Source of the DNA: Cirrosporium novae-zelandiae
Taxonomy: Eukaryota
Reading direction: 5' to 3'
Assembly: GCA_026023565.1 (NCBI GenBank)
Contig: JAPETS010000053.1
Location: 62,001 to 126,000, forward strand
Length of the DNA: 64,000 nucleotides
Shown here piece by piece: positions 6,619 to 62,980 of this stretch (the stretch's first letter is position 1; every line of letters starts with the position of its first letter). The notes below the pieces were generated by a model that was not told the DNA's origin, ran no database searches, and saw nothing but the letters and a program-made list of their open reading frames with translations. Both the position numbers and the translations under genes were made by a program.

Positions 6619-8765
6619 TTATGTAGTCTTCTCGCTGAATCCGCCTTCAAGCCGATAATCTGGGTTAGAGTGATCAATGTTTTGGACATTTTCCAATCTC
6701 TCAGAACTTTCCTTCGACGACAGGGAAATGGCGCTAACACGACGCCTGTGTTCCTCGGTATCTTCGTAGGCGATCAACAGCTCTCCGTTTTTGTCGTACC
6801 GATGAGGCTCCTCTCGGGCCACTCTCACGACATTCCAAGTATTTGACTTGTGGAATATTACATCCATTTCCTCCAGAGAGCGATAAGCAGTCTCAGGGTA
6901 GAAGAAGTATACAACTGGGAAGATAAAGGCATTGCTAAGGAACAAGTATTAGCTAATTCATTTCCTGGTCCTGTGTAAACCGTAACTCACATGACAGCAA
7001 AAATAATATAGGTCTTGTATTTAATTGAAGAAAACGAAACGGGCGTTATCATGACGACCATAAAATTGAAGATCCAGTTTCCAGAAGTTGACAAGGCATT
7101 TGCAGGTGCTCGGATGCGCAGAGGGACCTGTGACATGTTAATCGCATTTCTACGAGTCCTAACGTAGACTTACAATCTCAGCAGGGTACAGCCAGGTCAT
7201 CCCTAGCCAGCCAATGGCAAAGAATGTGTTGAAGATGAACAGGAAAGCTGCTGCAATTATTCCGCAAACATTACCACCAATACTGTTCATGACTGCCAGG
7301 ATAATCATCGAGGCAGACATGCCAGCTGCACCGAAAAGCATTAGTGTTCGTCTACCAACCTTTTCGATAGTAAAGACGGCAATAAATGATGCTGCAAAAT
7401 ATTCCGTGCCATTTGCGGCAGCCAGAATACGGGAGATGAAGCTCGAGAGACCAATTTCATTCTGATAGATAGTCGCAGCATAGTAGGTGATAAGGTCTAT
7501 ATAGGAAATTGATTAGTAAACTCCGTAAAAAAGGAGAATGGAAGGAGGACGAACTAATGCCGGATATCTGCTGGAACATTTGGTTGACATATGCCAGGAT
7601 TGTTCGGTGAAGGTGACGATTTTCGTTACATTTGAACAAATCTGCAAATCCACCTTTAGACATCTCGAGCACGGTGTCTTTAATGGCGATAAATTCCGAG
7701 TGGATATAAGGATCGTCTGACGGAAGGTCGCTCAGGGAACTTAATACAGACAGGGCTTCCTCTTCTCTCCCCTTCAAGATGAGCCATCGGGGACTTTCGG
7801 GAAGTTCGAGTATAAAGGCGAGAATTATGAGCGCGAAGAAGATCTGAAAAGCAATGGGGAATCTCCAGGCAACGGATGATGGTTCCGCAAACGAAAATCC
7901 AAAATCAAGCCAATAGCTAATCATGATACCACCAGTGATCAACGAACCTTCGATCATGACCAGCTGTCCTCTTCTGTGGGACTTTGAGCATTCTGATTGC
8001 CAAGTTGGTACAGTTGAGGTGTTGAGTCCATTTCCGAATCCAGTTATAACACGTCCAGCAACAAAGTGTCCTATAGAAAAGGCTGAAGTCTGAAGTGTGG
8101 CCCCAAGAACCATGATAGCTGATCCTAGGAATATAGTCTTTCTACGTCCTAGAATATTTCCGATCCAAATGCAAAGTACTGCACCGAAGAAACAGCCCAC
8201 ATTGTAAGAGGCGACAGTTATACCTTTTTAACATTAGATTGTAGTAAACGGGATTCGATGAAACTAGTATCTTACCTTGGATAGTCGAACGATGATCTTG
8301 TTGAGCTGGAGTTAGGCCCTTGAGCCCTGCAGCCGTGGTATCAATCTCAGGGAAAACTTTGACAAAAGAATCGAGAGTTAAGAGTCCACCAGTTACACCC
8401 CTAGAAGACGTGTTAGGCAATGGATATAGATTTTTTTTTCTCAAGCCATTTCAATGAAAACCAAGCAATTATGTTCGAAGCCCTCTTAAAGATCCAATTA
8501 CGAAAAGAACTTTAATTCTCCTCTTCACTCGTTTGACTAGAGGTCTCTCCAGCGGGAATTGACTTGGCTTGACTTGATTTGACTCGATTTGACTTGAGAG
8601 TGGACAGGTCTTTACATACTGGTCGTAACCAAAGAGCCTGTAGTGAAATTAGTAGATTGTATGCGGTAATGCGCAATATACTTACAAGAAGTCAAGACCC
8701 GCTATAAACCCGATAGCTAGGTTCAATTGGGTCCCCTTTAGGCCCATGTACTTGCGTCCGAACAT
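6619..8765 (-). CDS. MFS sugar porter (STL1-like sugar/polyol:H+ symporter), multi-exon
   Basis: Start MFGRKYMGLKG; 18-nt micro-exon 8637-8620 (LFGYDQ); motifs GRR, PESPRWL, QQISGIN, WLYPAEI and PET. Confidence 0.92.
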
Positions 8766-9626
8766 TTCGGATATTAGAGGGATCGTAAAGCTCTTGCAGC
8801 TTAAATGATAGGAAATAAGCCAGGTCTAAGCAAATAGTAAAGATATCAATCAATGACCACACCTTTAGGCGCAAAGGACTTCAATGCTCTGCAAGGCCTG
8901 TGGAATCGGTAAAGGAATGCTGAATCCGGACATTTAACAGCGGGGGGTTTAGGTTTTATATAAACACCGACATTGTGGGAAACATCATCTTTGACTATCG
9001 TTGACATTTCGAGTAACCACCTAAGTAATCATACTCGGGGTTGGTTCCCAAGCCAAAGGCTTACTGCGTCGAGTTCCGATCCAATGTTGAGTTGCGTCTT
9101 CGATATCCGGGAATCCTTGACAAAGATCCATGATGAAAACCCATGTCTAAACAATAGACTATAGCCAGAGGTTGAGCTTGCGCTGGACCGATGCAACCAC
9201 AATGATCATCCTATAAAACTTAGATAATTGGTTCAACTCGCACTATTATGTCCCGACAATGTCCCTTAATCTGCTAGACTCGGAGGGCTCTTACTGAAAG
9301 ATACTTATTTAGATGTACTCTTACACTGTACATACTTACATGCTCGGTGTGGGAGTGAAATTGCAAAATAGAAATGATGTAATGTGGGAACGGCTTACTA
9401 GATGAGGAGAATCCGGTGCTCAACTACCCTCAATTATGCTCCAGGACGACAAGAAATACTCTGCAGAATGTAAAAGACCCTGAACCAGTTGGAACCAATC
9501 TCGAATCATTTTATTAAAAAAATCTTAACCTTCCTTGTAGGACTTGCAGTAGCATGGTCACGCCGAGTCAAATCAAGACATGCCGTCGAATAAGTTTGCC
9601 GACGGCTAGGGGCTATGGGTCGTCAT

Positions 9627-9998
9627 CTGGGGAACTTCATGACATCTTCCCCACTGTTTTACCGTTGAACTACAAAGTAGTTGTTGCTGAATGCGAGAAC
9701 AACTCCGCTGAAACCAACGTCAAAGATGGTCGGCTATCAATTGACCTTGGTGCTTCAACACCAAGATTTGTACCATCTTGAGGTGACGGGTTTTTTAGGA
9801 AATTTATTGTGGATACTTTTTCCTAAAGTGTTTCGTAACGATTCTGAATTTCGCACTCACAATGTTGGCTTTGAGTAACCATCACGTGGTGCCCTAATAG
9901 GAATATCCTAGATTCCCCGCGTATTTAACTTGGGCATAGATCTGTCAACCCCAGAAACCCCAGGAATCTCCGGATTTCCAAATAAAAGCCATCTGGGG
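9627..9998. promoter_or_regulatory. Cluster of SYGGRG (CreA/Cre1-type) motifs upstream of the sugar porter
   Basis: SYGGRG on either strand at 9627, 9649, 9915, 9949, 9958, 9968 and 9993. Binding is inferred only. Confidence 0.35.
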
Positions 9999-10914
9999 TG
10001 CGTTCGGAAGGAATATTCGATTGCTGACTCTAGATTTGGGTGGCCTGCAAGGAGAATTTGCTGTTGGAATGGCCGTTACTAGTGGAGAAGGTTAGGGGTT
10101 GATGGGTTCCTAAATTAGGCAATCCCGGGATAGAATTGGCATCCTCTTTTGCCCTAAATTCGGGTGACAAACTTCAACTTCTCATTGCCCCATTTTTCCA
10201 TCTTAGCCCAACTATTATTAACCCACTCAACCCACACAATATTATTCATGACTTCATCTCACCTTAAATCAACATGCTGGTAATATTTAATTTTTTTTGT
10301 CCTTCTATTCCTCTCCTCTCCGCCATATCTGTAACGGAATCAATACTAACAACCTGTTTACAGCTGTCTTGTCAATGAATAGTCGGTCTCTTCCGATTCC
10401 GGAGAACATACCTTGATCTCTACGTACTTAGCTATGTTAAGAATTTCACCAGGGTTTTGAAATATTTCATTGCATTTTTGAGTCTCAACTGTTTCTGCTA
10501 TCGGGTCCTATCTATGAGAATAGACAAAGTTGCGAACTCTTGAATAACAGTAGGGGTGCACGCGATATACAGTGTGGAGACGGTCGAGACAACATGAGCG
10601 ATTCTGAATATGTTTCCTCTGGAAAGAAGTGCTTTTCAGATTTGACCATTCGTTCAGGAGCACAATTTCAGTATCGCTAGTTATCATGAAAGATGAAAGA
10701 ACAAACTTGCTTTAGAAGACTCTGTCCTTGTAACCATCGCTTCTCTTTTGGACAGAAAGTGTCTAGAGTTGCGTAGGGTAGGACTCTTAAGAAGGAAATA
10801 AAGCAGAAAGGGATGGATGCTAACGGTCACGGAAACAGATTGAGTTGTTGGCCAGTGCTGGAGGCGATGTTGCAAGGAACTCATCTTGATCCGTAAGGAG
10901 CAATGGTCAATCCC

Positions 10915-13063
10915 TTACCACTGTGCTGCTGTAGAATCCCATCCACCCTGGGCTGCTGGAATTTCCACCTCAACAACGTTATCAAAGCTACCGGTGTTTT
11001 CTTGGTTATCTTCAGCGTCGACAGGTTTCTTGCAGCGTTTAATAGTATGCCCCACTATCGAAATTAGTATTGGAATCCTCAAGGTATAACAATGGCACTT
11101 ACTTTCTCCGCAATTGTTGCACTTGACACGAGACCAATCTTTTTTCTTTGGACAATCACGAGTGAAATGGCCCACTATTGTTTGTAAGTTGGTTGAGCCT
11201 TACACTTGGAACAAGATTCATACCTTCGTCACAGTTACGGCATTTCGAATTGGCTGGGTTGCGTGGCTCAGTGCATTCCTTTACCATATGGCCTTCTTGT
11301 CTGAACATTGGTTAGGACATTGAAGGTACAGGAATCAAGGCCTAAAGACTTACCCGCAGTTACGGCATGTCTTGGGCTCACGCTTAGGACAATCCTTGAC
11401 AAAGTGGCCCACTGTTTCATTCAGCATCTAATATGAAGAGAGGAACGGACCAACTTACTCTCGCCGCAGTGTTTGCACTCAACACCCTCGGCAGAACGTG
11501 GCTCGGTGCAATCGGAAGCTTTGTGACCTGGTTGGCTATGTTGGGTTAGTCTTTTATCATGAACCAGCGACCTTAAACAACTTTACTCACTTGCAGTTGC
11601 GGCAGAGGTGTTGCTTCTTGCTCTTTCGTTCTTCTGGACAGTCTCGTGCGCGATGTCCTAGTTCGCTGCAGTTGACACATTTCACAACCGTATGTTCAAC
11701 TTCTGTCCTCTCCTCAGGACAACCACGACTAGTATGACCCATTTCTTCAACCATGTTAGCATACAACCTTGGAGTCAGTTATTGAACAAACTTACCGCCA
11801 CAGTTACCACACTTAGGGACCTTCCGATCCTCAGGCAAACCAGCATCCTCAAGACGTTGAATATTGACTCCTGGTGACTCTGGCCATGCCTCCTTGAAAG
11901 CTGCACGCCTTGGGTTTGGAGAATAGTAGAACCCGACTGCATACTTGCAGCCTAGCTTACCCTGCAGGTCAACAAGGACACGGGTATCTCCAATTTCTTG
12001 CGTCTAAGATTATATATTTGTTAGCTTATTGTCACTGAGAAGCATATGACCAGTTGGTACCTTGGCAATCAAGTATGTGTTGAAGCCGTTGTCACGAAAA
12101 GCCGCTTCGAGTTGAGACCAGGTAGTTTCTGGAACAGCTTTGGTGTAGATCTTGATTGCCTGAAGTGAGACCAAGTTAGCATTTTTATTATCTTCAGGTC
12201 TCATAAGAAGATGACAACGTACATCCTTGAAGTCGCTAAGTTCTTTCTCTTCATCGGCCTTCTTTACCATCTCCCAGGCGGCATCTGGCTCCATGATTGG
12301 AACACTGTCATCAGAACGCTTGCGATTGTTCTCACAGTCCTTGGCGAAATGACCTGATTTGTTTCAGTGAAGAGTTTCCTTGGATGTTCTTGAAGACATT
12401 TACCTTCTTCCCCACAGTTCCTGCAAATCTCGGGAGGTCTCTGAGGACATTCTTTGGCTGGATGGCCAGTTTCGTTGCAAATGCGACATTCACCTGTGAA
12501 AACGCGTTGTTTGGAACATTCTGATTTGCCATGACTATAATGGCTCAGCGTGTGAAAGGGGGCTGAGATTGTTAATTGACCACCTACCCTTCTTCGCCGC
12601 AGTTATAGCACTTGATCCCACGTGGCTTTGGGCATTCTCTGGCAAAATGTCCCTGCTCGCCACACCTATGATTGCCACTGTTAGCGTTCTGAAGCAAGGT
12701 AATAGAATGTTATGTTACTGTGGACTTACCTGCGACAGTTGCCATCATCGCTCTTCTCATCAGCATTATCATCGCCGCCGGCATGCTTTGAGGCAGAGAA
12801 GTCATCGCCGGGTTCTTTGATGGCACCACTATCCCAAGTGTCGTTATTGTTGCCGCCACCACCCCACTTGGGCTCAGCACCACCACCATCCCAGGCGGGT
12901 TGGTTGCCTAAATGAGTCATTAGCTGAGGTCAAATAGACTCGGTAAGGAAAGGGTAACGAAGAGTTCGATGAAAGTGACTTCAAGGGGTTGTGAATATGT
13001 GATGGCAAGGTGAGCTCAGATCAGAAAGGATCAAAAAGAGATAGGCTTACCGTTCCAGCTCAT
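10915..13063 (-). CDS. Multi-CCHC zinc-knuckle nucleic-acid-binding protein (CnjB-like), many exons
   Basis: About 11 CX2CX4HX4C knuckles after splicing (e.g. CRICNETGHPAKEC, CVNCSELGHRARDC, CNNCGEMGHTIKRC); central AAWEMVKKADEEKELSDFK domain; G/W-rich N-terminus starting MSWN. Confidence 0.88.
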
Positions 13064-13450
13064 CTTGCCTGGGGGAACTTGAAATAGAAGACAGTCACTG
13101 GTACTAGTTTCGTCAGGCCGAGGGTTGAATTCGGCTTTGACGGTCGAGGTTTAGATGCGAGGAAAGAAAAAATTTGAAGGATGTTAGGGGAGAGAGGAAG
13201 GGTGGAAAAGAAAGAGGAAAAGGAAGAAGAAGGGATGAGATGATGAGGGATAGATATTTTGAACGCGGTGAGTGTGTTCTGACCCCAACAACAATAGAAT
13301 TACTAAATTAGGTCTGGGACCATTCTATTTGGAGCATATTGAAGAATTGGTGGAGGGTTGGCGATATTTCCAGGGGCTGTCCGACTTGGATAGCTGTTGT
13401 CTGATGGTGAATAAATGCTATATCGGACAAGATCAAAGGTCTCGGCAACG

Positions 13451-13530
13451 TACAGGGCCTTATAAGGCCGCATAAGGCCGTACAAGGCCATACGGGGCTG
13501 TACGAGGCCATACGGGGCTATACAGGGCCG
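13451..13530. repeat. 10-bp minisatellite x8 (YAYRRGGCYN), quasi-palindromic
   Basis: tacagggcct tataaggccg cataaggccg tacaaggcca tacggggctg tacgaggcca tacggggcta tacagggccg. Confidence 0.9.
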
Positions 13531-14238
13531 TCTATATTTACATATTATAATATACGGCTTTTTCTTATGGAGACATGTTTGGAAACATGCTCGGATGCTG
13601 CTGCTGCAGAAGACTAGGGTTATGATATTTACACATAAGATTCTCCCTATAAATGCCAATTAGGGGGAACTTTTTTATTTTTTCTTTACCGCAGTAATGA
13701 GGACTGCAAATACTAATTAACTACTTTCGATAGTATGGTACCTGATTAATTAAATGACGATATACTTTCTATATGAGCACAAAGAAAAGTCATAAAGGTT
13801 AATTTTGTAAGGCTGATATGTCGCGCATGGGTACATTTGAAATCCGTAATATCCGAATCCTGTTTCGTGGGGCCCCGCAAAAATTGATTCTTAGACTATC
13901 AGCCACAAGCATTACAGTTCAAGGCGGCAAGCTGACACGGCTAGATAGCTACACGGCAATGGTAATCATTATCAGGACTTGCAAGCAACTCCTCACTCAT
14001 CCGCTGAACTTTAACAGGACAAGCCCAATAGCTGGCTTTAGTACCAAAGTCTCCCCAGAATGATTTCCGCGGCTCCACGAACCAGGTATTGCTCCTAAGT
14101 ACCTAGGCCCCTTGTTCTAACGCTGATGAAGCGCTCTTCTAGAATCCTCTCTTTTTTTAGCCACAATGTGACCAGTCCATTGTCATTCTGACCTTGGAAT
14201 CAATATCTTTGCGTAATGAGCTGAGATGGTATCAACCG

Positions 14239-17200
14239 ATGATGGAAGAAAGCGCTCTTGTCGAGGAGGAACCTTCAGTAGCAAACGGGGAGGAATGGAC
14301 AACTTCTGCTCGCAAACGACGGAAGACTTCTGCAACTAATGGACCAACTAGGAAAAGGGTTTCTCAAGCATGCAACAGATGTCGGAATAGGAAAGATAAA
14401 TGCGATGGACGACGTCGTAAGTACTACCAATATATAAAATGAAATATCCAAGTTTAATTATTTATAGCTTCATGTTCAACCTGCGAGACCCTTGGTATCC
14501 CCTGTTCCTATGATCCGAATACTAAGAAACGTGGCCTTCCTGAAGGATATGTACGCGGGTTGGAAAAACTCTGGGCGTTGGCCATTCATGAACACAAGGA
14601 TATCGAAGAAACCATACTTGAGATACTGGGCGAGGATGGTAGCAAACGAGAAGCTTTGGTTCGAATATGGAACGATGAAGGTTTACCCGAACCACTGATC
14701 GAAACGTGGAAGAAGAGTCGGATACTCCGTCAGCTGGAAAGACTCCTTCCAATCCTTGATCAAACGGACGAGAAAATCGGGAAGAGAAAGCGTGATAATA
14801 TCAATTTAACTCAGTTGAGCACGGAAAAGACAAACACAGAGTTAGAAGGAAATGATTCCGAATGCAGGCCTTCTGGAACTTCCGGTAGAAGTCCAAGTTC
14901 TACTCATTCAATATATTGTCAGATTAGAGGTCCAAAGAGCGATTATGGTAGCCCACAGTCTCAGACTCAGAGTGCATCCGCCAAGCCAAGAGCATTTACT
15001 CTTCCCTCAAACACACGGCGTCTTTTGGACATATATTTCACATACACGCATTGCTGGCTACCCATTATCGAGAGACCAGATGTTCTACGAGTTCTATATA
15101 AATACTCACCAACAAACTTGAATCGCTCGGCATTGCCAACTGGCTCTGGAGAACACGCAACACTCTGGGCAATTCTTGCTTACACCAAGGCTCAGATCCC
15201 AGCCACATATATCTCCCATAATCCGCCTACGGATAATGAAGCAGATAAAACACCATGTGAAGAGTTCTATAGGAGGGCTAGGGATTTGATCCCTCTGGAG
15301 GATGGCACTTTTGAGCTAGGGCATGTTCAAGCACTCCTCATTCTGTCGCTTTATCAAATGATCCGCGGAAATTGGCAAGTTGCTTGGCTACTAAGTGGAC
15401 ATGCTGTGCGAATTGCTATTGACCTTGGCCTGAATAGCTCGTCTGGCGTTGATCTAAAATCAAAGTCTCACGACTGTCCACGAAATAAGCACGTCTTTCT
15501 TGGATGTTTCGTTCTTGATACTATTATCTCAGCAAAGCTCTGTAGACGACCCCATCTTCGGAAAGATGATGTTGATTATACTGGTTTGGTTCAGGAAGAT
15601 GGTCTAGAAGAATGGGACCCTTGGAATGATTGTCTCGGTATGAGTCGGAACAACCTAACTAGCGATCCTCTTGATCCACCCTTTACACTGACTACATTCA
15701 ATCGTCTCGTCTGTATATTAAGAATTCTCAACGAGGTTACACAGAACTCTGCTACTGGATTTGATAAGGCAGATGCGGTCAATCTTCTCTTCACAGAGTT
15801 AAATACTTGGAGTCAGCAGCAACCTCCCGAAACTTTACTTAGCCTTGAAGATGCTATTACGTCTTCTGTCCAACTTACCTTTCTTCCTCACCAGTATAGC
15901 TTACTTTTTACCAAAATTATGACTCTCACTGCATTACAATTGTATTCCTTTGCTACTAAGAAAGCCTTCGGCCCAGGTGGTGTTTTGAAAGCCATGTCAA
16001 GATCTGCAAGGCTAGGTATTTGGCTCTTGAATGTCTTCTCTCAAAGTTATAATTTCCAGATCGCTCCACCGATCTTTGAATACTTTTGTTCCGTCCTCCT
16101 AGACTGTCTAGAGATTGTACGTGAGGATATTAATAATGAACAGATGTCTTATGAGACTTGTTTGGAAATTATGTTGCGGTCTCTTTTGGATATGGAAAAG
16201 TTATCGCCGGGATTCAAGTCACTCAAAATTCGATTCATCAACAGCTTTCAGCTCAGTAATAACCACCAAGCTTCCAGAACGTCTACCCCAAGCAATTCAA
16301 TATGTGATAACATCCAAGGGCCACCAGTCCCAGCAGCAAGCCCGAATGTTCAAGACATAGCAAATTTAGTAAAAGTGCCTTCCAATTCCTCCCAAGGTAT
16401 AGCCGCAGATGAGTTATGGGAGACCTCTCATAAATATTTTCCGTCAGTTATGTTCGACTCGCAATCAGAGGTCCCAGTTTTTCCTGCAGCTCAGTACCAA
16501 TCGCAGAATATCAGAACACAGTCCCACGATAATAAATTGTTTAGTACGTTCGTCTTATCTCGCCGTAACTCACACGGTGCAGACCAAATGACGATGCCTC
16601 ATGAGGACATGTCGACGATAAGTGCTGCTGAACACCCTTCGTCCCAGACATCTCCTGGGCCTCCTGAGTATAGTCTCGAATCCTTGGGTAATTTCCTACC
16701 GTTCGGCACAGCCGACTGGTAAGTTTGTTCATATATTTAAAGCTAAACTTTATATTGACCAGTCTCAGGGATTCCAATATATTACAGGAAACCGCCTGTC
16801 AAGATTTCGCCGTACAGTCAAACACGAATCAAGATGCTATAGATTCTCCCCTGGAATTGACATCCTCGAATAATATGCACACCACACCAACAACGCCTTC
16901 AATGTCAGCCGTTAACGATGCTATATTCAATCTTGCAACCCCTCAAAGTAGCCTAACTCAAGCACCTATAGATACCTTGACGACAAATTTTCTAGACTCT
17001 CTTCGCTTCTATAATATTGGAACCAGTATCCTCTATAGCATCTCCCCCGCTATACATAAAGCCGCTTTTCATGCCTTTTCCATGCCACATGACTACTTGA
17101 TCTACCAAACCTCCTCACTTGCGTCTCTATTTCAACTCTCTCAATCTCCCGACTTCGGAGGGGCTTCCATATCGATGCCTTTCAAGGTCAGTATTGTGCC

Positions 17201-18077
17201 ATCTTTGACATATAAATCCGCCCATGTTCGGGCCATTAACGCAGTCAATACTTTGGTCCCCCTTCGAGCTCGTGCTGATGGAACGGTTCCTTCGTTATCT
17301 GACCAACTTTCTTCAAAACCTGGGGACCGACCTACAGGCCCAGTGGTTGCGTGGTATGGCGAAAACACAGACTGGGTTGGCATTCTCACAACTATCAAGC
17401 GTCACGTCTCTACACTACCACCTCCACTTAATACCATAAATCCGAGCAGCACGGTCGCACTTGTTGTTGGGGCTGGTGGCGTCGCACGCGCAGCCATCTA
17501 CGCCCTCATCCAGTCCCGAGTCACTAGAATTTTCCTCCACAACCGCACTCGCGAGAATGCAGACCGCGTTGCTGCTCAATTCAACAGCTGGGCCGTCCCA
17601 GACCCCGCATTTCCAGGTACCAACGTCGTTACCGTCATCCCATGCAAAGGCAATCCTTGGCCCTCGTTCATAAGCCCCCCAACGATTATCATTAGCTGCA
17701 TCCCCGCTCACAGCGTAGGCGGCTTGCCGGCCGCAAATACATTACTCCCACCCTCATGGCTTAGCAGCCCCTCTGGTGGTATAGTCATTGATTTAGCATA
17801 CCAACCGGTGGACACTCCCCTCCTCAAGCAAGTTCGATCCTGGGCGCGCGAAACCGGAAGACATTGGATCACGGTCAGCGGGCTAGAACCGATTCTGGAG
17901 CAGGCGATTTGCCAATTTGAAGTCATGACGGGGAAGCGAGCACCCAGGGAGATGATGAGGGCGGAGGTTCAGCGAAAATATCAACATTGGATGGGGAAGG
18001 AGGATGGTGATAGATTTGAGTTTGGTGCGGGGGCTGAGGGACTGCAGGGTAGGATTATGGGGGAGGTACAGAGTTGA
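14239..18077 (+). CDS. Zn(II)2Cys6 transcription factor (QutA/qa-1F-like) with C-terminal shikimate/quinate dehydrogenase-like (QutR-like) domain; predicted ~1245 aa from exons 14239-14416, 14468-16718, 16769-18077
   Basis: [31 protein letters not shown] cluster across intron 1; KKRGLPEGYVRGLE; fungal TF middle domain (YFTYTHCWLPIIE, AVRIAIDLGL, EDGLEEWDPW). A GTAAGT...CAG intron (16719-16768) joins in frame to the SDH domain (GGASISMPFK, AVNT, NTDW, GAGGVARAAIYAL, NRT). Confidence 0.82.
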
Positions 18078-18880
18078 TGGGATTTAGAGGAGGGGGTTTT
18101 GGGGGGCATTTGTTTGGTGATTAATTGCAGTAATGTAGATTTCTCTGCTTATTCGACCTTTGGTATATATTAATTCAAGGACATAACTCCATGTTATTGC
18201 TATAATTATTCCATAATTATATAATATCAATAGATTTTCTTCCAATCCTCAACTGTTCATGAAACCTTTTGCTTTTTTTTTCACCGCTTTTCATTAATAT
18301 AATGCCATGATACCCCTAAGCTAGCGCAGAAATCCCTATTACAATCCAATCCCCTCTACATATACCACAGTTCTCCCCTACCCTGCCCCCCATCTAGATA
18401 TCCTAAAAACTAATTCCTCTAGCCTCCCTATCCAATATCAACCCCTCTCCCCCACACACCCCTTCCACCTTGAGGGAAGATGAACTTATAGAGAAAGGAA
18501 AGGCGAGAAGGAGGGAGTATTCTTGTTATTGTCTGCACGAATGACACTCAAGGTTAACATCAATATCATACGGCAGTTTCCTTTATTTGCTTGTCTTTTC
18601 CACTCCTACTCTTATACTACCTTAAATGAATGAATGGGTTTCGCTGGTCCTATTATGGAAAACTTGAGTTGGATAATGATGTTCATAGATGGTGGGTACA
18701 GGACTAAAATTCCTCCATTGAGAAAATCGCTTAAAGCTAGTAATTAAAAGTAGAAATGCCTGGAGCAACTTTATTGCAGCTTCATCCTCTCCAAGGCTGT
18801 AAGTACATGCCATTATCTATTCCTTAAATAATGAAGACTATCTTGACTTCATATATGCTCTTCTCAGTGACCTCGCCATA

Positions 18881-20519
18881 TCAAACTCTCATAACTCCTG
18901 TCACAATCCCCGATTCAAATGCCTTCTTAGCATCCCTTGCCAATTTTCCTCGGAAATAAGTCCACACACCAAGGACCACCAACGTCAAAGGGACCGCGAG
19001 GACCCAAAAGATCCAGAAACTGGACATGGCTACATGAATCCTCCTGTCATCGGTGCTGCCGTCATAATTGAAAAATTGACTGCCGAAAATTGACTGTTAG
19101 GAAAGGTTAGTATCTGACTACAATGTAAAGGCATGTTCACAAACTCCAATAGTGGCAGCAGGTAAGAAGATCAGAGTTGCAAGCGCCATGGTGTGCATCG
19201 AGTTACTATCTCTCTTCATAGTAAAGCTGTCTTGTTGAGTTACTAGGTTGAAAGCCTGGCTTTATCAGCAATTGATCCCTAGTGATTATTTGTCCTTACC
19301 AAATTCAGTATGTTTTCCATCCTTTTTTGTAAACTTATTATCCGCAATTTAGTTGCTTCCAGTGAGACCTCTTCATATTTCAGCCTAGATTGCGTGTCTA
19401 TTATGATATTTTTATTTTGAGCATTCGCCGATTTGGCTAAAAGTTCGTGCTGAGTACGAATGCTGTCGATTGTCTTAAGTGCCGCGTCTGTGCCTTCTTC
19501 CATGTAGATTATATGCTTCGCGACACCATGAAGTCCAGCAAAGTCTTGTTGGTCTGCATAGTTCCTCAAAGAGGCGATTTGAAGGGTACCCTGATCCAAT
19601 TAGTAGATTTCGACAGCATTAGCTAAACGGAACACTCGCCTTCTCGATTGTTGAAAAGGGCCTGGACAAGTCCCAAGCAGTATTGTCTAATCGTCGACAA
19701 TATTCTGATAGGATAATCACAAACAACATATAAGGGTCGACAAGTACGTCCTTCCAACATGAGTTTGCTGCTAGGCGTTCGAAACGCCTTTCTATGCTCG
19801 TCAATGCCCCAAAACAAATTAATATCACAGAGTCACCTTTCCATCTTAGCAAGAAGCCTGCTTGGATCCATGTCCAGTCTCCTTGGCTCAATGGAATCCA
19901 TTCTGATGGTCGTGACTGGGCTTTCTGATTTTGGTGTCTCGGATCTTGAATGTGCCATGCTTCTTGTGGTGTCAAGTTGATATCCTTACTCAGCCAATGG
20001 AACCATGAACCTTTATGTCTGTCAGCCGCTTTGGGGGAACGACATACTTATAATTTGTGTCCCTGGATGGTCTCGATACAGTAGACATACAACTGGAAAC
20101 TTACATTGCCAACCATTGTTATCAATCCGATTTCCAAACGAATTTGTTACCGACTGTATTCTTTCTGAAAGAAACTCGGGCGGAAATGAATAATGTCGGA
20201 AAAGAGCCACAAGACCATTTACTGTTCTTGGTCCTGGCTCATCAAGGTCGGCAAATCTACTTCAATATCAGTCTGATATTGCCACTTTACAACTAGGCAA
20301 GGCGTAGGACATCACTCGAAGTTTCGGTAGACCTAAACGAAACAGAGCTTCTAGCGTGATTCGAGATATTTTTTGCGGCCCATTATTCGGCCATTCGAGG
20401 ATCCCAACCGTTAATGAGTTTGCCTCCGCCCACTGACCCGCCTTGACAAGATGGTTATACCCGTCGTATCGGGTGTCATCGTCACAGAAAGAAACATCTT
20501 GGCGGGGCGGGGAAGCCAT
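18881..20519 (-). CDS. Fungal CorA-like Mg2+-transporter-domain protein, multi-exon
   Basis: Helical region followed by KRDSNSMHTMALATLIFLPAATIG-SIFGSQFF...FWIFWVLAVPLTLVVLGVW, a two-TM C-terminus typical of fungal CorA-like proteins. Confidence 0.72.
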
Positions 20520-21897
20520 GACCCTTGCTTCGTCACCCGTCTAACAACTTGGAAGCAATATTCAGGATATTAAAAATAAATTCTTGAATTGTCCGTCTGC
20601 TAGTAACTGGAATATTTGCAGCTAGACGTCCAAAATTATATGATTCCTATAATTCTCTCGGTGTTGTATAAGTAGTGCTGTGTATAGGATATAGGATCAG
20701 GGGCTCTACGAGACTAGGACTCAAATTTCTTAACTTGGTCTACTTATTCTGACTCAATGCGCCAAGCGATGACGGAAATCAAGTATCTCAACAGGGTGGT
20801 TGAGGCCCAGGGCAGATTATCGTATTGTACTACTACAGTACCGTTTTCAGCTACACCTGAAATCGTGGAAAGGCCCGTGTTTCTACTTAACGATCCAGCA
20901 GGACCCAGCTTTGGTCGAAAACTGGGGAGTAAATTTTCCTGCAGGTCGCTTGCGCCCAGAGCTGTAGGATTCAACTTGTGATACTCGAATTAACCCGAAT
21001 TGGAAAGTATCTCGCTACTAAAAAGGAAATTAGGGTTTAGCAAAGATCATCAAGTGTTTGAATAAGCTCGTAACTTTTAATGCAGGAACGGTGAGCTTAA
21101 TTATTGATCCTGAAATAGGTTATGCCAAGATATTTCAGGTTGCACCACATATCCTGGACTATAATTTATTCGCTGTCCCAAGCGAGAACCCGGTTTCTTT
21201 CCATCAGCCCTCTTCAAAGAATGAACTTAATTTATGATCCGATATCTACTGGCTGCACCTTGTGACGTCTGGAAATTCACGGAGTTTCCGATATTGGGTT
21301 TCATGGGCAGCATACTTGATCCAAAATCAATTCCGTCACACACCACATTTTCCTTGATGCCTCCTGGATATTATGGACATGGCCAATAATCATCACCTTC
21401 TGTTTATGCCTTTCATGGCTCCTTTGATTTTTCGCCGTTGTGCCATACATTATTGTTTTCAATTCGAGGGAAATGGTGGCAAAGATATTAGCTCCTCTTC
21501 CCCGCATAAAAAGCAAATATGTTAGTCCAAAATCTCAACAGAATGACAAGACTATCATCATAAGAGAGCCATATTGACTCATCAGTCATCCAATCATGAA
21601 TGAGGAAAATACGCCGAATACGATAGTACATATCATACCAAGTTGCTCTCTATGAGTTGGTTCCAGGCCTACCAAGAATAGCATGGAGTGTTATGTTCAC
21701 CACGGGGAGGGCGTTCAACGTCTTTCCGCAAATCGAATTAAAATTTGTGCGACCTTGGCAAGGCTGAAAGACTCTATATTCAAATAGTATTTATAGGCCT
21801 CGACTCGTTTTCCTTTTCCTTTAAATTTCTCAAGGAACCGGATATACATTGTGCCCTGCCATCCTGCTATTGTAGCTTCATAAACCAACGATCCTCA

Positions 21898-24800
21898 ATG
21901 GTATGTATAAAGACACGAAGATAAGAGGCATAGCTAACCTAAGTATAGTCCGGAGCACCCAGACCCCATGGTGGAGACTACACGTCCCCCAATGCCACTG
22001 TAGTTGGCCCAGGGGATTATGGGAACGGGCGACCCCATGGAGGCAATTATACCTCTCCAAACGCTACCGTTATCCAGCCATATAGTTCAGCTAGTAGTAG
22101 CTCAAGTCGCCCCCATGGCGGAAGCTATACTTCCCCAAACGCTACCGTTGTGCGGCGCGAGGTCCCATCCAGTACCGTAAGTGATAAGGCTCAACATACC
22201 AATACCAGATCCACCTATTCTAAAATCGAGGACTTCAACACATACATTATATAGATTCAAGCTGATTAATAGTCTAGATCAGCTCTCTGAGTTCCTTGAC
22301 CCCTCAACTACCTTCCTCAGAAAACCCCCATGGCGGAACTCATGGCTACCAAAATACGCCACCGACAAGCTGGGAAATGCCTATGAAACAAGTCAGTATT
22401 CCACCTCTGTATCCTTATCGATCAGTAAGCTGAATAATAGTTGAGGATGGACAACCTGTTTCTACTCCTGGAGGATGTTACTTTCCTGCACAACCCCAAT
22501 TACACAATGCTTGGGCGCCACCATCACCAAACGCTTATGCGCAGGTGAGTATCTGATTCCTGATCGACTTAGGATACACCCACTTACATCAAGAAGCAAC
22601 AATATGAAGGTCAAGGTTTCATGTCCCCGCCATTTACGAACAACCAAGCGTCTGCACCAGGAGGGCCTGTACCGGTACGAGGCTTTTTTTCCATGTTTAA
22701 TTGCTTTGGGCGATGTTAGTGACTAGGAGATAATAGAACCCCTTTGAAAATGGCCAAACATTGGAGGGACAGAATCTGTCACATGTACGTAAACTGTCAT
22801 GTCCCATAAATTTAGTAAATAGATGCATCTAACGCCTTGAAAGATTCCCCGCAAGCACCAGAAAGGTTATCGCAATATCGCATACCCACATTCTCTCAAA
22901 TGGGCATTCCCTAATATCTACAAGAAGCCTGGACAGCAATACATGCCAAATATTATCCGTCGCCATCTCGATGCCATGTCAAGGGTTTGGACAGGCCCAG
23001 AGGACGATCGGTACATCAGCCCCATGGATGCACGTCTCTCGAAGCTCGTAGTTCAAGCTGTTGACGATATCTATGAAGGCCCACCCAATTCCACCTGGAG
23101 ACGCACTTTTGTTCGAAACACCAGTCCATTGATCCTGCGGCTTGCCAACCTTCCACTGAATAGGGCACCCCTAGATAGAGCTACCTGGGATGCACAGGTT
23201 TGGGCAACCGTGGCTGGCAAATGGCTCATCTCTTCCATGGCCCTCCTTTGCGTAATGAACTTCCAGCTAGGCTCGACTGGCCAAGTGAGGAATAATGGAT
23301 ACTACGACCCTTTCCACTACAAGTTTTGGGGATATCCTAAAATTGCTCGGAATCCTCAAGAGGGCCAGACCCTGAAACGCCAGGGGAATGCACAGCAGCC
23401 AACAAATGCGGTCATGGAGCGGACTCTGGACCCAAGGTATCTGTGCTTCCTCAAGAACCCAAAGGACGATGAGAATTATGATTTTGAAATATGGCCCGTG
23501 GCTCTCTGGAAAGAAAGACATCCAGAGGCCCTCCAGCATGACATGCGATATGTCGTCGTCGCATATACAGCAAAGCACTTTTCCTCGGACGAGGACCTGA
23601 AAGCCCTCGACCGCATCGCCGTCCGAGCAGCAAGAGACGCCGGCGTCCCCGCATACTGGTGCGGAAGCAACTGCATGCGAGACCCCTCAGAACTCGAAGA
23701 CGACGTCTACCGCATCAGCGACGTGATCCGGGGCTCGCACTCCGTGATCATCGCCCTAAACACCGCCAAAGACAGCATCGGCGCCGAGGTCGACCACGCC
23801 GCCATGCTCAAGGAATGGGGCGACCGCATGTGGACGCTGCCCGAAGCCCTCCTAAGCCCCAAAAACCAACCGCTGAAAATCTACACCGACGACGAATCGG
23901 CCCCGCCCTTCGCCATCGAGAAACAAAACTTTGCCTCCCTCGCCTGGCACGATGCCCTAATCTCCCGCCAGCTCATCGACCACTACGAGGGCAACCTCAC
24001 TCTCGGACGGCTGGAACTCGTCACCCTCGCCCTCCGCTGCATCAGCACGCGCACAACCTCCGAACAAAAATTCCCAGGAGACATGGCATACATCCTGATG
24101 GGCCTGCTCCGCCAACGACCCACAATCGATAAAACCGACAGCGCGTTCCAGGCCTTCGCCAGACTCTCCCTCGCAAACGACAGCGACATGCTCCTCGAAC
24201 GCCTCATCTGCGTACTCCCTGCCTCCCCCTCCCAGCCCTGGCACTGCATGTCCGACGCCTACAACATAAACCTGTGGGACATCTACCCAACATGCCAAAT
24301 CTCCGGCGTCGCCACCGATGACACCATCATCATCGACGGCGCCTTCGGCGCCTGTATCCGCTGGAAATCCTTCGCCCCGGTCGCAAACGTCGTCCAAGCC
24401 TCCTGGCGCCGCCTGTTCTCCCGAATCACCGTCCATGGCGCCCCCACCGCTGCGGTCATAGGTCTAATCCTCGCCTTTATCTACTCCAGCGGCGCCGCAA
24501 AGGCCATCGGGGTCCTAATCCTCCTCTACTCTCTTGTTATCGTCCTCCTCTCCCCCTACCTGGTGCGCCTCCTCTACGGCGGCAAGCTCTGGGGCACCCA
24601 GCCCTGGTTCTTCGGCTTCGAGGGTCATCTCGACCTCCCCACAATCGAATCCCACGTCTTCGGAAACAGCATCGGTCGGCTTGCCTGGTCGACCTGCGGT
24701 AGCAATCTCTCCCGGCATATCCAAAACCAGCATGGCGAATGCATCGGTATCGATCCCACTTCTGACCCCGCGGTCGCGGCTATGGTCGGCCACGCAAGGT

Positions 24801-25111
24801 ACGCTACCCTTGACGAGGAAAAGGTGTTTACGCTCGTAGATACGTATATGATGACGGTGACGATGTTCAAGGCTGTGAGACCACCAGTGGCGGTGCTGAT
24901 TTGTGGAGCCGAGGGCGGCATGCAGAGGGCCGTGTTGTGTAGTTATGGCTGGAAGAGCCAGACTTGTTGGAGGGAGGCGGTGTTGAGGATGGAGACGCCG
25001 GTGCTGGAGAAGATGAGTCGGGTTGGGAGGGTGAGGTTTGGGTTTCGGAGACCGGTTAGTGGTGGTGGGTTTGGGCCTGTGGGTGGTCAGATTGAGGCTG
25101 TGAAGGAGTGA
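21898..25111 (+). CDS. Conserved-looking fungal membrane protein with HET-like domain and N-terminal RPHGGxYTSPNATV repeats (about 7 exons; exon 1 contributes only the ATG)
   Basis: ATG|GTATGT at 21898; short exons splice into the 722-aa ORF. HET-like motif spacing YVVVAYT / AYWCGSNCM / VYRISDVIRGSHSVIIAL / WGDRMWTLPEALLSP; two predicted TM helices near 24450-24580. Confidence 0.75.
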
Positions 25112-60624: not shown

Positions 60625-61515
60625 TTACTTGCCCTCCCGATCCCTCCTCGCAACCGCCTCAGCCATAACCTCCCGCGGCGCTTCCAACCCCGTCCACAGT
60701 CTAAACTGATCATAGGCTTGTTCCAGCAAGACATCCAATCCCGTTACAACAGCCCACTTACCCTCCCCATGATCCCTAGTAACCGCCTGCAGCAGCGGCG
60801 TATACCTCGGCTTATACGCCATTTCCACACAGACACCACCCCCAGGCTTGGAGAAAATCACGGGCGGGAAATAGTCGACGGTTGTTTTGTCCGCGGGGAT
60901 TGTTCCGACGATGATATCGGGCGCCTGATCGGCGGGGACGTCTGAGAGGTTGTCGAGAACGGTGATGGGGAAGAGGGGTGCGAGAGCTTCTGCTATAGCT
61001 ACCGCTCGCGATTTGGTGCGGTTGGTTAGATAAATGGTCTTGACGCCTAGTTTGTAGAGGGCGTAAATTGCGGCTCTAGAAGCGCCACCGGCACCGACTA
61101 CGAGCCCGGTTTCGAATTTCTTGGGGGAGGAGGATGATGATAACACCTTCTCGATCGCTCGAACCAAACCGGTCCAATCGGTATTATCCCCTACTATAAT
61201 TTTCTCCCCCTTCCCCTCCTCCTCCTCCACAATCAACGTGTTTATAGCCCCCACAATCCTCCCATGCTCGGTGACCCTGTTGCAGAATTTCGACACGCCC
61301 AGCTTGTGCGGCATAGTCACGCTGGCGCCCCCGAAGCTGGGGCTGCGGATCGTGGATTCTAGTTCATCGACGGTGGAGGTTTCGTGGATTGTGTATGTGT
61401 GGGGGAGGTGGTGGTGCTGGAAGCCGGTGTTGTGGATTGTGGGGGATAGGCTGAAGGAGATTCCTTGGCCGAAGATGTAGAAGTTTTTTGGTGGTGGTGG
61501 TGAGGTGAGGGACAT
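60625..61515 (-). CDS. Stand-alone shikimate/quinate 5-dehydrogenase (AroE-like), intronless
   Basis: SLSP, GGASVTMPHK, GAINT, GDNTDW, GAGGASRAAIYAL, NRT, EMAYKP, GLDVLLEQAYDQFRLWTG. Confidence 0.92.
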   Translation of the reverse strand: MSLTSPPPPKNFYIFGQGISFSLSPTIHNTGFQHHHLPHTYTIHETSTVDELESTIRSPSFGGASVTMPHKLGVSKFCNRVTEHGRIVGAINTLIVEEEEGKGEKIIVGDNTDWTGLVRAIEKVLSSSSSPKKFETGLVVGAGGASRAAIYALYKLGVKTIYLTNRTKSRAVAIAEALAPLFPITVLDNLSDVPADQAPDIIVGTIPADKTTVDYFPPVIFSKPGGGVCVEMAYKPRYTPLLQAVTRDHGEGKWAVVTGLDVLLEQAYDQFRLWTGLEAPREVMAEAVARRDREGK

Positions 61516-62980
61516 TGTTGCTAGATTTGCTGATTGATTGACCGTGTGCTTGCTTGCTTGTTAGATCCAATCAATTACCCTCTCTAGACAATCTAGGTCA
61601 AATAAAGAAACCCCAGAATATATAATATATCTAGACTATACAATCCAACAAAACACAACAAAACAAGTACGTACTGTAAGTACTGTAAGTACTATAACCA
61701 AAACCAAAAACCAAAAAAAAGAAAGAAAAAAAAACCAGCCCCACAAAAAACAGTTAACTTAAGTTGTTAGAATGAAAATAACCAAGTTGGTAGGGGGGGG
61801 GTAATTAACATTGTAATAGTCTAATTGAAAAAATTGAAAACAAAAAACCTGGGGGCCTAGACTAAGGGTCGATCCGGGGCCGAAGGTCGGAGGCGGGATG
61901 GGGAGTGGAGAAAAAAAAAAACAAAAAAAAAACATGGGGGGAAAGTTTGAGTATAGTACTACCTACATAGGTAATTAATTTACTTGTACCTACACTCTTG
62001 CCCTACCCCTACTTTACCCTACCCCCCCCTTATCAAGGAATTTTTAAATTTAAACCAAGTCAAAGTTCAAGTTCAAGTTTTTTTTTTCCTGTAATTATAA
62101 GGATGGACCTGCGAGGGGGGAGGGAGGAAGAAGAAGAAGTATATTATATATTATATATATTTTAGGGCAATGAGGAGGAGGAAGGGAAAGAAAGGGAAAT
62201 TGTTGATATTGATGTTGATATTGAGTAGTGTGTATGTATGTCTATTCGGACAGTACAAGACAACAACTAGATATCCATGTCTATATCTATATTCTATAGA
62301 AGAAAGAAAGAAAGAAAGGGGGGAAAGAAAAGAAAAAAATCTTTTGCTAGAATTTCGATTTTTATATCATCTTATTTAAATGGGGTAGGTATAGTATATA
62401 TGCTTACTGTACTGTACCTTCTCATATTTACGAAGTCAATATACCCTAACTTTTAATACTTCAACACATCCCCCCCCCCCTACCGTGAAGCCCTAGCCCT
62501 AGTTTCGATTCCAAAGATAATAGGAGAGACCTACACAATATTACGGCCCTTAGAGAAAGTGTAGCCTTATCTTGTAATCATTTATTTGGACCTATTTGTC
62601 AATCCATCTACAAAGTAATTATTGCTGATTTAGGATGGTTGGTTGGTTTTGTATACACCAGCTCTCTTCTCATTCCCCCTAGACTACCACTGCAGTCTTA
62701 CGATTTCGCGGTCGAGTGGTAGGTAGGTCGGTAGGTAAGTGAGTATGTGACGGCGAAATAATACTAATGATTTGTACTAGCTACCATGTTCTTTTTGATA
62801 TGTATGCTATATACTAACGATATATGTACGTGACATATCAATAGCGAAATTGAATCCTATCCAACACCACCGACGCCAACCTTACCAAACCTAACTTAAC
62901 ATATGACGCCTCGCTATGCAATCTATCTACCGTATATGCAACATCAGCAAAGGAAGCGACAACAGCCATAAATAAGGCCA

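Follow-up and report, generated by a model that had tools for sequence, protein, structure and literature searches.

A QutA-family activator frame running into a QutR-type shikimate-dehydrogenase-like domain in Cirrosporium novae-zelandiae: a candidate single-chain regulator

The locus and its gene model

In a window of 64,000 nucleotides (nt) from a metagenome-assembled genome (MAG) of Cirrosporium novae-zelandiae (contig JAPETS010000053.1, positions 62,001 to 126,000, forward strand; this whole stretch is the window to which all positions below refer), two long reading frames follow each other on the + strand within positions 14239 to 18077. The upstream frame encodes a transcription factor (TF) related to the QutA and Qa-1F activators, and the downstream one a shikimate-dehydrogenase (SDH)-like domain related to that of the QutR, Qa-1S and TanX repressors. 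A short predicted intron brings the two into a single frame, and we lean, judging from the sequence, towards the view that one fused polypeptide of 1245 amino acids (aa) is made from this locus.

Stop-to-stop translation of the window by genetic code table 1 gives + strand frames at 14458-16722 (754 aa) and 16692-18077 (461 aa), which share a few bases. An earlier interpretation made from the letters alone, hereafter the sequence-only reading, had noticed both frames; they are slightly longer than the 720 and 450 aa that it gave. The TF frame ends in ...GCC GAC TGG TAA GTT, with the tryptophan (W) codon TGG at 16717-19 and the stop TAA at 16720-22. This stop lies inside a splice donor, GTAAGT at 16719-24, that begins at the final base of the W codon, the last exonic bases being TG, to 16718; if the intron were retained, the TAA would terminate the TF. 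Enumeration of all AG dinucleotides after the donor showed that the first two, at 16761-62 and 16767-68, are in frame and leave tails of 438 and 436 codons to the stop at 18075-77. Splicing from this donor to either of them does open the downstream frame, as the sequence-only reading had claimed, and the second re-forms the W codon. The downstream frame has 35 open codons ahead of its first ATG (16875), which lies 152 nt beyond the TAA. The model deposited at NCBI, 'MAG: hypothetical protein M1834_007754 [Cirrosporium novae-zelandiae]' (P0001; 1245 aa, three exons), uses the acceptor at 16767-68 and is 100% identical to our fused translation. It is a gene prediction and not independent evidence for the fusion. 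Features of the gene are collected in Table 1.

Table 1. Features of the fused gene model, with the observations on which each assignment is based
Feature	Positions	Strand	Basis
Exon 1: start ATG, basic N-terminus, first half of the Zn2Cys6 cluster	14239..14416	+	N-terminus of P0001 identical
Intron 1: 51 nt, GTAAGT...TAG, phase 1, within the Zn2Cys6 cluster	14417..14467	+	Splicing completes the Zn2Cys6 pattern (regular-expression control)
Exon 2: remaining Zn2Cys6, KRGLPEGYVRGLE motif, Fungal_trans (~15025-15810), degenerate motif ...NFLPFGTAD-TG	14468..16718	+	Fungal_trans 3.9e-29; homologs ~40% identical; invariant columns kept
Intron 2: 50 nt, GTAAGT...CAG, phase 2 in the W codon (predicted)	16719..16768	+	Frame restoration; intron site conserved in relatives
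Exon 3 start: S/T/N/Q-rich linker, P0001 residues 810/811-871, predicted to be disordered	16769..16952	+	Predicted local distance difference test (pLDDT) <50 in AlphaFold2 (AF2) model
SDH-like (AroE-fold) domain, assigned QutR/TanX-repressor origin	16953..18008	+	Pfam, homologs, tree, AF2
C-terminal tail of ~22 residues and stop (18075-77)	18009..18077	+	Low pLDDT after exon 3 residue 413
Alternative out-of-frame acceptor AG	16786..16787	+	Would yield an unfused TF with W + 17 residues

Family relationships of the two halves

By homology, residues 1-810 are a Zn2Cys6 activator of the QutA/Qa-1F family, in agreement with the sequence-only reading. Splicing of exons 1 and 2 produces a complete N-terminal Zn2Cys6 binuclear cluster, Pfam recognizes Fungal_trans (PF04082) in this part, and a hidden Markov model (HMM) of the QutA family matches P0001 at 3.7e-277. 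Zn_clus (PF00172) is listed in the database record of P0001, so that Zn_clus, Fungal_trans and Shikimate_dh, the combination proposed by the sequence-only reading, are all found on this one model. The homolog set of the TF part consists of its best 120 matches (411-1311 aa), 119 of which are plain Zn_clus/Fungal_trans proteins, about 32-46% identical and in several cases named quinic acid utilization activator; the only one among the 120 with an SDH domain is P0001. In a quick tree of 65 rows, with Shimodaira-Hasegawa-like approximate likelihood-ratio (SH-aLRT) values as the only support, the TF has a long branch and forms, with two clades that include many TFs from loci carrying qut-type genes, a three-way split whose order is not resolved. 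That the TF might be a TanR orthologue, an idea raised by its best Aspergillus matches, was dropped: the Aspergillus clade with the A. niger TanR cluster (support 100) excludes it.

The downstream part is matched in Pfam by Shikimate_dh_N (2.7e-15), Shikimate_DH (2.2e-6) and SDH_C (4.9e-6). When it was compared with longer proteins, 119 of the 120 best matches were QutR-type repressors composed of SKI, DHquinase_I and SDH domains, the remaining one being P0001. Identity to these repressors is 38-50% (43-50% for most) over 63-94% of the query (mostly 76-92%), against 26-29% to the SDH domains of AROM. In a phylogeny of the SDH domain, an analysis that the sequence-only reading had proposed, the domain falls inside the repressor clade (59 of the 74 rows, 98% SH-aLRT) and, more narrowly, in a subclade of 34 rows (97% SH-aLRT) that includes repressors of qut clusters and Aspergillus TanX, with no resolved position inside this subclade. 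The tree sets it apart from stand-alone SDH enzymes, including the SDH gene that the window itself carries at 60628-61560. On this comparative evidence, residues ~872-1223 (~350 aa) make up an SDH-like domain of the QutR/Qa-1S/TanX repressor family and not a QutB-type enzyme, and derivation from a QutR-type protein, as first proposed, holds.

The structural prediction agrees with an AroE-type fold. In an AF2 model of the SDH part, built with 60 sequences, 277 residues reach a pLDDT of at least 90, and the best solved matches found by Foldseek are the AROM SDH domains of S. pombe, C. thermophilum and C. albicans (E 1e-24 to 1e-21). The repressor-like motifs given in the sequence-only reading are present in the downstream translation, and the AroE-type ligand residues pointed out at the same time are all retained (S900, S902, K949, N970, T971, D1011, GAGG, NRT, Q1188 and Q1192). 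This second observation is not distinctive: the same residues are near-invariant across the 119 repressors, save for the column of the catalytic Lys, and in alignments their retention characterizes the repressor family at large and is not peculiar to the fused protein. In the catalytic-Lys column the 119 repressor-type proteins have K in 57 cases and R in 60, preceded by F or W (R in P0128 of A. flavus), and the catalytic Asp is present in 118 of them.

The stand-alone SDH-family frame at 60628-61560 (- strand, 311 aa; Shikimate_dh_N 3.4e-20, SDH_C and Shikimate_DH) falls among enzyme-type SDHs rather than repressors, its neighbour being one from locus L045. Identity is 30-36% to the SDH domains of repressors and 28.5% to a qutB-like gene.

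The two other domains of a QutR-type repressor appear to be missing from the window. With full-length repressors as queries, no SKI-like or DHquinase_I-like remnant was found in the window at E up to 1; these queries match the window by their C-terminal part only, from about residue 422-470 of an 805-aa repressor. The absence of the kinase-like and dehydroquinase-like domains noted in the sequence-only reading thus extends to the window.

The junction between the frames

The second intron can be placed in the context of the activator family. A C-terminal motif, F.[DE][FL]...[DE]..[EQK]W, occurs in 105 of the 120 TF homologs. As many as 26 of these 105 proteins stop exactly at the W of the motif and many others bear short junk tails, a pattern that looks like truncation by intron-blind gene callers or read-through of an intron. 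In well-annotated genomes, the TFs run on past the W with ...WDQSL.NLGF..QDFY.FC.EPDP.... At the DNA level, a GT starts on the final base of the W codon in all 15 distinct metagenome loci with the motif, and in 13 of the 15 the tail-exon motif (WDQSL.NLGF) follows 56-191 nt downstream. Because of these two regularities, we take the TF family to have a conserved phase-2 intron in the W codon. The donor in the window, TG/GTAAGT, stands at the only W closing the TF frame and appears, by comparison with relatives, to be the last-intron site of the family. No copy of the tail exon (WDQSL.NLGF) was found in exon 3 or anywhere else in the window, so an unspliced TF would be without the family tail.

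What follows the junction is, in the AF2 model, first disordered and then well folded: pLDDT stays under 50 over residues 1-61 of exon 3. In this picture, some 60 disordered residues serve as a tether ahead of a complete domain, and the repressor part was cut in the linker between its dehydroquinase (DHQase)-like and SDH-like domains; since the cut lies in this interdomain linker, the SDH domain is left whole. The sequence-only reading had likened the tether to the C-terminal tail of QutA-type activators, and profile tests do not support this part of it. With a profile of 32 annotated TF tails, residues 811-884 reach 0.6 bits, a score matched by 658 of 1000 shuffles; with seven Aspergillus-type tails they reach 3.1 bits, matched by 22 of 1000 shuffles. 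The segment NFLDSL, which had been counted as part of such a tail, belongs instead to a helix of repressor origin, ahead of strand 1 in the SDH fold, and can be aligned with repressors.

A number of observations weigh against a single fused product, and they are given here together with the alternatives on which they bear. The first alternative is that two products are made. The TF would end at the retained-intron TAA or 17 residues past the acceptor at 16786-87, and the SDH frame would be translated separately from M846 or M855, whether as part of the same bicistronic-like transcript or of one that starts at a promoter within the TF gene, giving a minimal trans-acting repressor or sensor, or an enzyme. 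Such an acceptor exists: the third AG after the donor (tattacAG/g), a YAG 69 nt from it, is out of frame and leads to W and 17 residues before a stop (an 18-codon tail). Start codons exist as well, for M846 (ATG 16875) and M855 (16902) stand 35 and 44 codons into exon 3, just ahead of the folded domain, and either could initiate a separate protein of ~390-400 aa.

The residues ahead of the junction, ...NFLPFGTADW, are a degenerate version of the family motif; MAFFT places F802, F805 and D809 on it, and 695 of 1000 shuffles match the family profile as well. As this match is not significant, the equation of the two intron sites rests on position, W and GT. The linker is without homology that would constrain it: besides the tail comparisons above, residues 811-884 score 0.6 bits against the interdomain linker of repressors (717 of 1000 shuffles as good), and a BLASTP alignment with one Aspergillus-type TF spans the junction to residue 851 with a weak match there. 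By these comparisons, the linker shows no more than non-significant or marginal similarity to TF tails and to its counterpart in repressors. Codon usage, with frequencies trained on 12 other open reading frames (ORFs) of the window, favours coding upstream of the ATG just weakly. The 35 pre-ATG codons score 0.073 in frame vs -0.50 and -0.21 in the other frames, near the values of TF exon 2 (0.05) and of the SDH domain (0.097), and 19% of stop-free non-coding windows score as high.

Set against two products are the closeness of the TAA to the first ATG, merely 152 nt, the fact that both donor-nearest AGs are in frame and lie ahead of the third, and the loss of the conserved family tail that the TF would suffer. 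Moreover, none of 14 odd-length representatives from the searches described below is a stand-alone repressor-type SDH, and most of the short ones start inside DHquinase_I and are fragment-like. We regard separate products as rather unlikely, while giving them more weight than either of the two alternatives that follow.

The second alternative is that the locus is a decaying remnant: a QutA/QutR pair was broken, perhaps with the loss of quinate catabolism, both pieces are drifting and the open frame is a recent accident. Both halves do have long branches in their trees (0.97 vs a median of 0.18 for the TF half; 0.69 vs a median of 0.14 for the SDH half). At positions conserved at 90% or more in relatives, the TF half keeps 140 of 162 and the SDH half 67 of 75, including K949 and D1011; with family medians of 97%, this is the lowest retention for the TF and the second-lowest for the SDH domain. 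Long branches and low retention could reflect relaxed constraint. The activation-type motif is degenerate and the tail is lost, homologs of qutC, qutE and qutG were not found in the window, and the gene-poor flanks contain a zf-CCHC relic. On the other hand, some 1245 codons are open, both introns are intact and 86-89% of the family-conserved positions are kept vs an overall identity of ~37-45%; retention is, in this comparison, far above what such identity would give by drift. The changes at conserved positions of the SDH half are mostly conservative, the exception being G to N at 967. Cirrosporium represents an isolated class, Xylobotryomycetes, which by itself accounts for long branches (PMC6712537; this and the other papers cited by PMC number are drawn on in excerpt), and a regulator may lie away from the genes that it controls (PMC12610400). 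Some relaxation would fit the retention values too, as would the isolated position of Cirrosporium by itself. We consider a mere remnant unlikely.

The fusion is, furthermore, seen in one gene of one MAG, with no relative sharing it. This brings in the third alternative, an assembly artefact in which the contig misjoins unrelated pieces between the TF and the SDH frame. Apart from the metagenomic source, the GC content, higher in the SDH part (0.50-0.56) than in the TF (~0.42-0.46), might be taken to point that way. But such a join must fall within ~150 nt, preserve both strand and frame, and adjoin a canonical intron; the SDH part matches the codon usage of the window (0.097), other genes of the window have similar GC, and the contig carries fungal genes for tens of kb on either side of the fused gene. 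An artefact is, in our judgement, very improbable.

The last of the opposing points concerns function. The part of QutR that inactivates QutA is reportedly, in work by Levett et al. in 2000, the N-terminus, which is missing here.

Even so, a single product is favoured because a canonical donor stands at an apparently conserved site, the two nearest acceptors are in frame and the tail exon is missing, and because of the 152 nt between TAA and ATG, the clean domain boundary and the codon usage. With the chances at about even, we see the best overall explanation of the locus in an activator, a tether and an SDH-like sensor domain forming a single chain.

As to the surroundings of the gene, the window offers, in place of qutC-, qutE- or qutG-like homologs, only a generic sugar transporter at 7-8.2 kb. 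A scan of the window with a Qa-1F-type site consensus gave one match with one mismatch, at 50560, vs 0.73 expected. The flanks at 8228-14238 and 18078-22840 are gene-poor: their 34 ORFs of at least 70 aa include a single Pfam match, zf-CCHC at 12267-12602 (- strand), possibly a relic of a retroelement Gag. No long direct or inverted repeats and no long terminal repeats (LTRs) were found around the gene (8-23 kb) besides a short three-copy coding repeat. The latter, at 21961-22156, consists of a 49-nt unit present three times (63-80% identical, spacing 69 and 78 nt) and looks like a repeated peptide motif that opens the large unannotated ORF region at 22841-25108.

Occurrence, possible origin and known systems

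In the relatives, the two halves are encoded separately. All 54 metagenome loci in which we found relatives of both the TF and the repressor, several of them near-identical copies of one another, have two separate genes in head-to-head (divergent) orientation, and none has them in tandem or fused; the distance between the first aligned codons has a median of 940 nt. Many of the related loci also carry DHquinase_II, AP_endonuc_2, Inositol_P, Sugar_tr and SDH genes, that is, a qut cluster. Complete qut-type clusters, comprising AP_endonuc_2, Inositol_P, DHquinase_II, Sugar_tr, SDH, repressor and activator, were seen in L010 (2035-16360) and also in L006, L009, L023, L028 and L046, always with the activator and repressor head-to-head.

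The search for the same architecture elsewhere, another step suggested by the sequence-only reading, gave no second case among the matches listed. Word-indexed searches with the TF part, with the SDH part against longer proteins and with full-length P0001 revealed no other TF+SDH protein among the best 120 matches each, and P0001 is the only Cirrosporium protein among the matches listed. When 1.84 billion representatives were searched exhaustively by phmmer with the SDH part, 7029 matched at E up to 1e-3; in the best 150 of these, neither the QutA-family HMM nor the Zn2Cys6 pattern was found, P0001 being positive as a control. The 14 matches of odd length that were scanned with Pfam turned out to be repressor fragments or, in one case, a DHquinase_I with two SDH domains. 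In this last protein (P0363, 1282 aa), where the two SDH modules come after DHquinase_I, a repressor has probably been merged with an adjacent SDH enzyme gene, unless the tandem is real. In the literature, we found no description of a natural activator-repressor fusion; in the excerpt of PMC5847190, 'fused', used with GaaX and GaaR, refers to a promoter construct. The fused architecture is thus not found elsewhere in our protein searches, and the modelled sequence itself is already deposited as a hypothetical protein.

A possible counterpart emerged from the ESM Atlas, where the entry most like the whole protein (score 0.92) is an 84-member cluster with a representative of 1530 aa. Fungal_trans (PF04082) and DHquinase_I (PF01487) are annotated in 100% of the members and Zn_clus in 20%. 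Judging from these annotations, the cluster may represent a full-length activator-repressor fusion of the GaaR+GaaX type or, alternatively, merged models of head-to-tail genes. It differs from the Cirrosporium protein in that its length implies a whole repressor rather than the SDH-like domain alone. None of its members is among the matches listed in the protein searches with the SDH part and P0001, and an Atlas search with residues 560-1245 gave no usable match.

How might the fused gene have arisen? Because the ancestral genes are divergent, a rearrangement is needed and not a simple deletion. One inversion, with breakpoints in the DHQase-SDH interdomain linker of the repressor and just inside the last exon of the activator, would give the order activator-intron-SDH in a single step. 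It would leave a stub encoding the SK-like (shikimate-kinase-like) and DHQase-like domains divergent from the activator, which would since have been lost; no such reciprocal product is detectable within the window.

In the two-protein systems, the repressor binds the activator until the inducer binds the repressor (PMC10512348, PMC12610400, PMC6528562). Non-inducible qa-1S mutations fall in the SDH-like domain, and loss-of-function missense mutations of GaaX are densest in the same domain (PMC6528562). The paralogous GaaR still works under inducing conditions when GFP is attached to its C-terminus (PMC6528562), and the ratio of activator to repressor matters, excess activator leading to constitutive expression (PMC5847190). 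Because of the qa-1S and GaaX mutations, the tolerance of GaaR for GFP and the effects of stoichiometry, the tethered SDH-like domain could be a built-in sensor and gate. In such a mechanism, the domain would still bind a small molecule resembling those of the quinate or shikimate pathway. Without the ligand it would keep the activator inactive in cis, and with the ligand it would release it, replacing the diffusible repressor at a stoichiometry fixed at 1:1. A complex prediction for TF residues 230-810 with SDH residues 869-1245, run without alignments or controls, scored 0.09 vs a mark of 0.34 and speaks neither for nor against binding. By analogy with the two-protein systems, we put forward sensing in cis only tentatively. 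That a single inversion created a natural single-chain quinate-type switch, sensing a metabolite and gating its own activation domain at 1:1, seems to us likewise doubtful.

The interest of such a protein is easily seen. The binding mode between repressor and activator and the domain that senses the inducer are described as an open question for QutR/Qa-1S, GaaX and TanX in excerpts of PMC6528562 and PMC10512348. The fused protein would be a ready-made dissection of the three pseudo-enzyme domains, predicting that the SDH-like domain is enough to sense and gate; if the cis mechanism is true, this domain alone would suffice for inducer recognition and activator masking. It would also show how a stoichiometry-sensitive two-gene switch (PMC5847190) collapses into one gene, and synthetic biology might gain from it a one-component transcription factor that responds to a small molecule. 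Should the fusion not be expressed, all that is left is an unusual rearranged remnant.

Comparison with known systems puts the locus in perspective. The fold, the catalytic Lys and Asp and the NADP-loop motif (GxGG) of the SDH domain are common to AROM and AroE/QutB; the difference lies in the low identity to AROM given above and in the separate position of stand-alone AroE/QutB-type enzymes in the tree. GaaR and GaaX of the galacturonate module are likewise an activator and an AROM-like repressor, and their genes are head-to-tail (PMC10512348). TanR and TanX of Aspergillus niger, which respond to tannic and gallic acid, provide the best Aspergillus matches of both fused halves: the cluster of P0169 includes An03g06800, which is TanX (PMC10512348), and that of P0114 includes the neighbouring accession CAK38437.1. 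The tanR and tanX genes are separate and divergent, and the Cirrosporium TF lies outside the TanR clade, whereas its SDH domain shares the 34-row clade with TanX. The comparison extends to the quinate modules, QutA/QutR in Aspergillus nidulans and Qa-1F/Qa-1S in Neurospora crassa. They comprise the same two families, an activator and a repressor with an AROM-derived SDH-like domain, and qut-type clusters hold the nearest relatives of both fused halves. In these systems, regulation is divided between two proteins and the qut structural genes are present at the loci; the Cirrosporium window is without qutC, qutE and qutG, and its gene model joins parts of both proteins in one predicted polypeptide that lacks the SK-like and DHQase-like domains and the tail exon of the activator.

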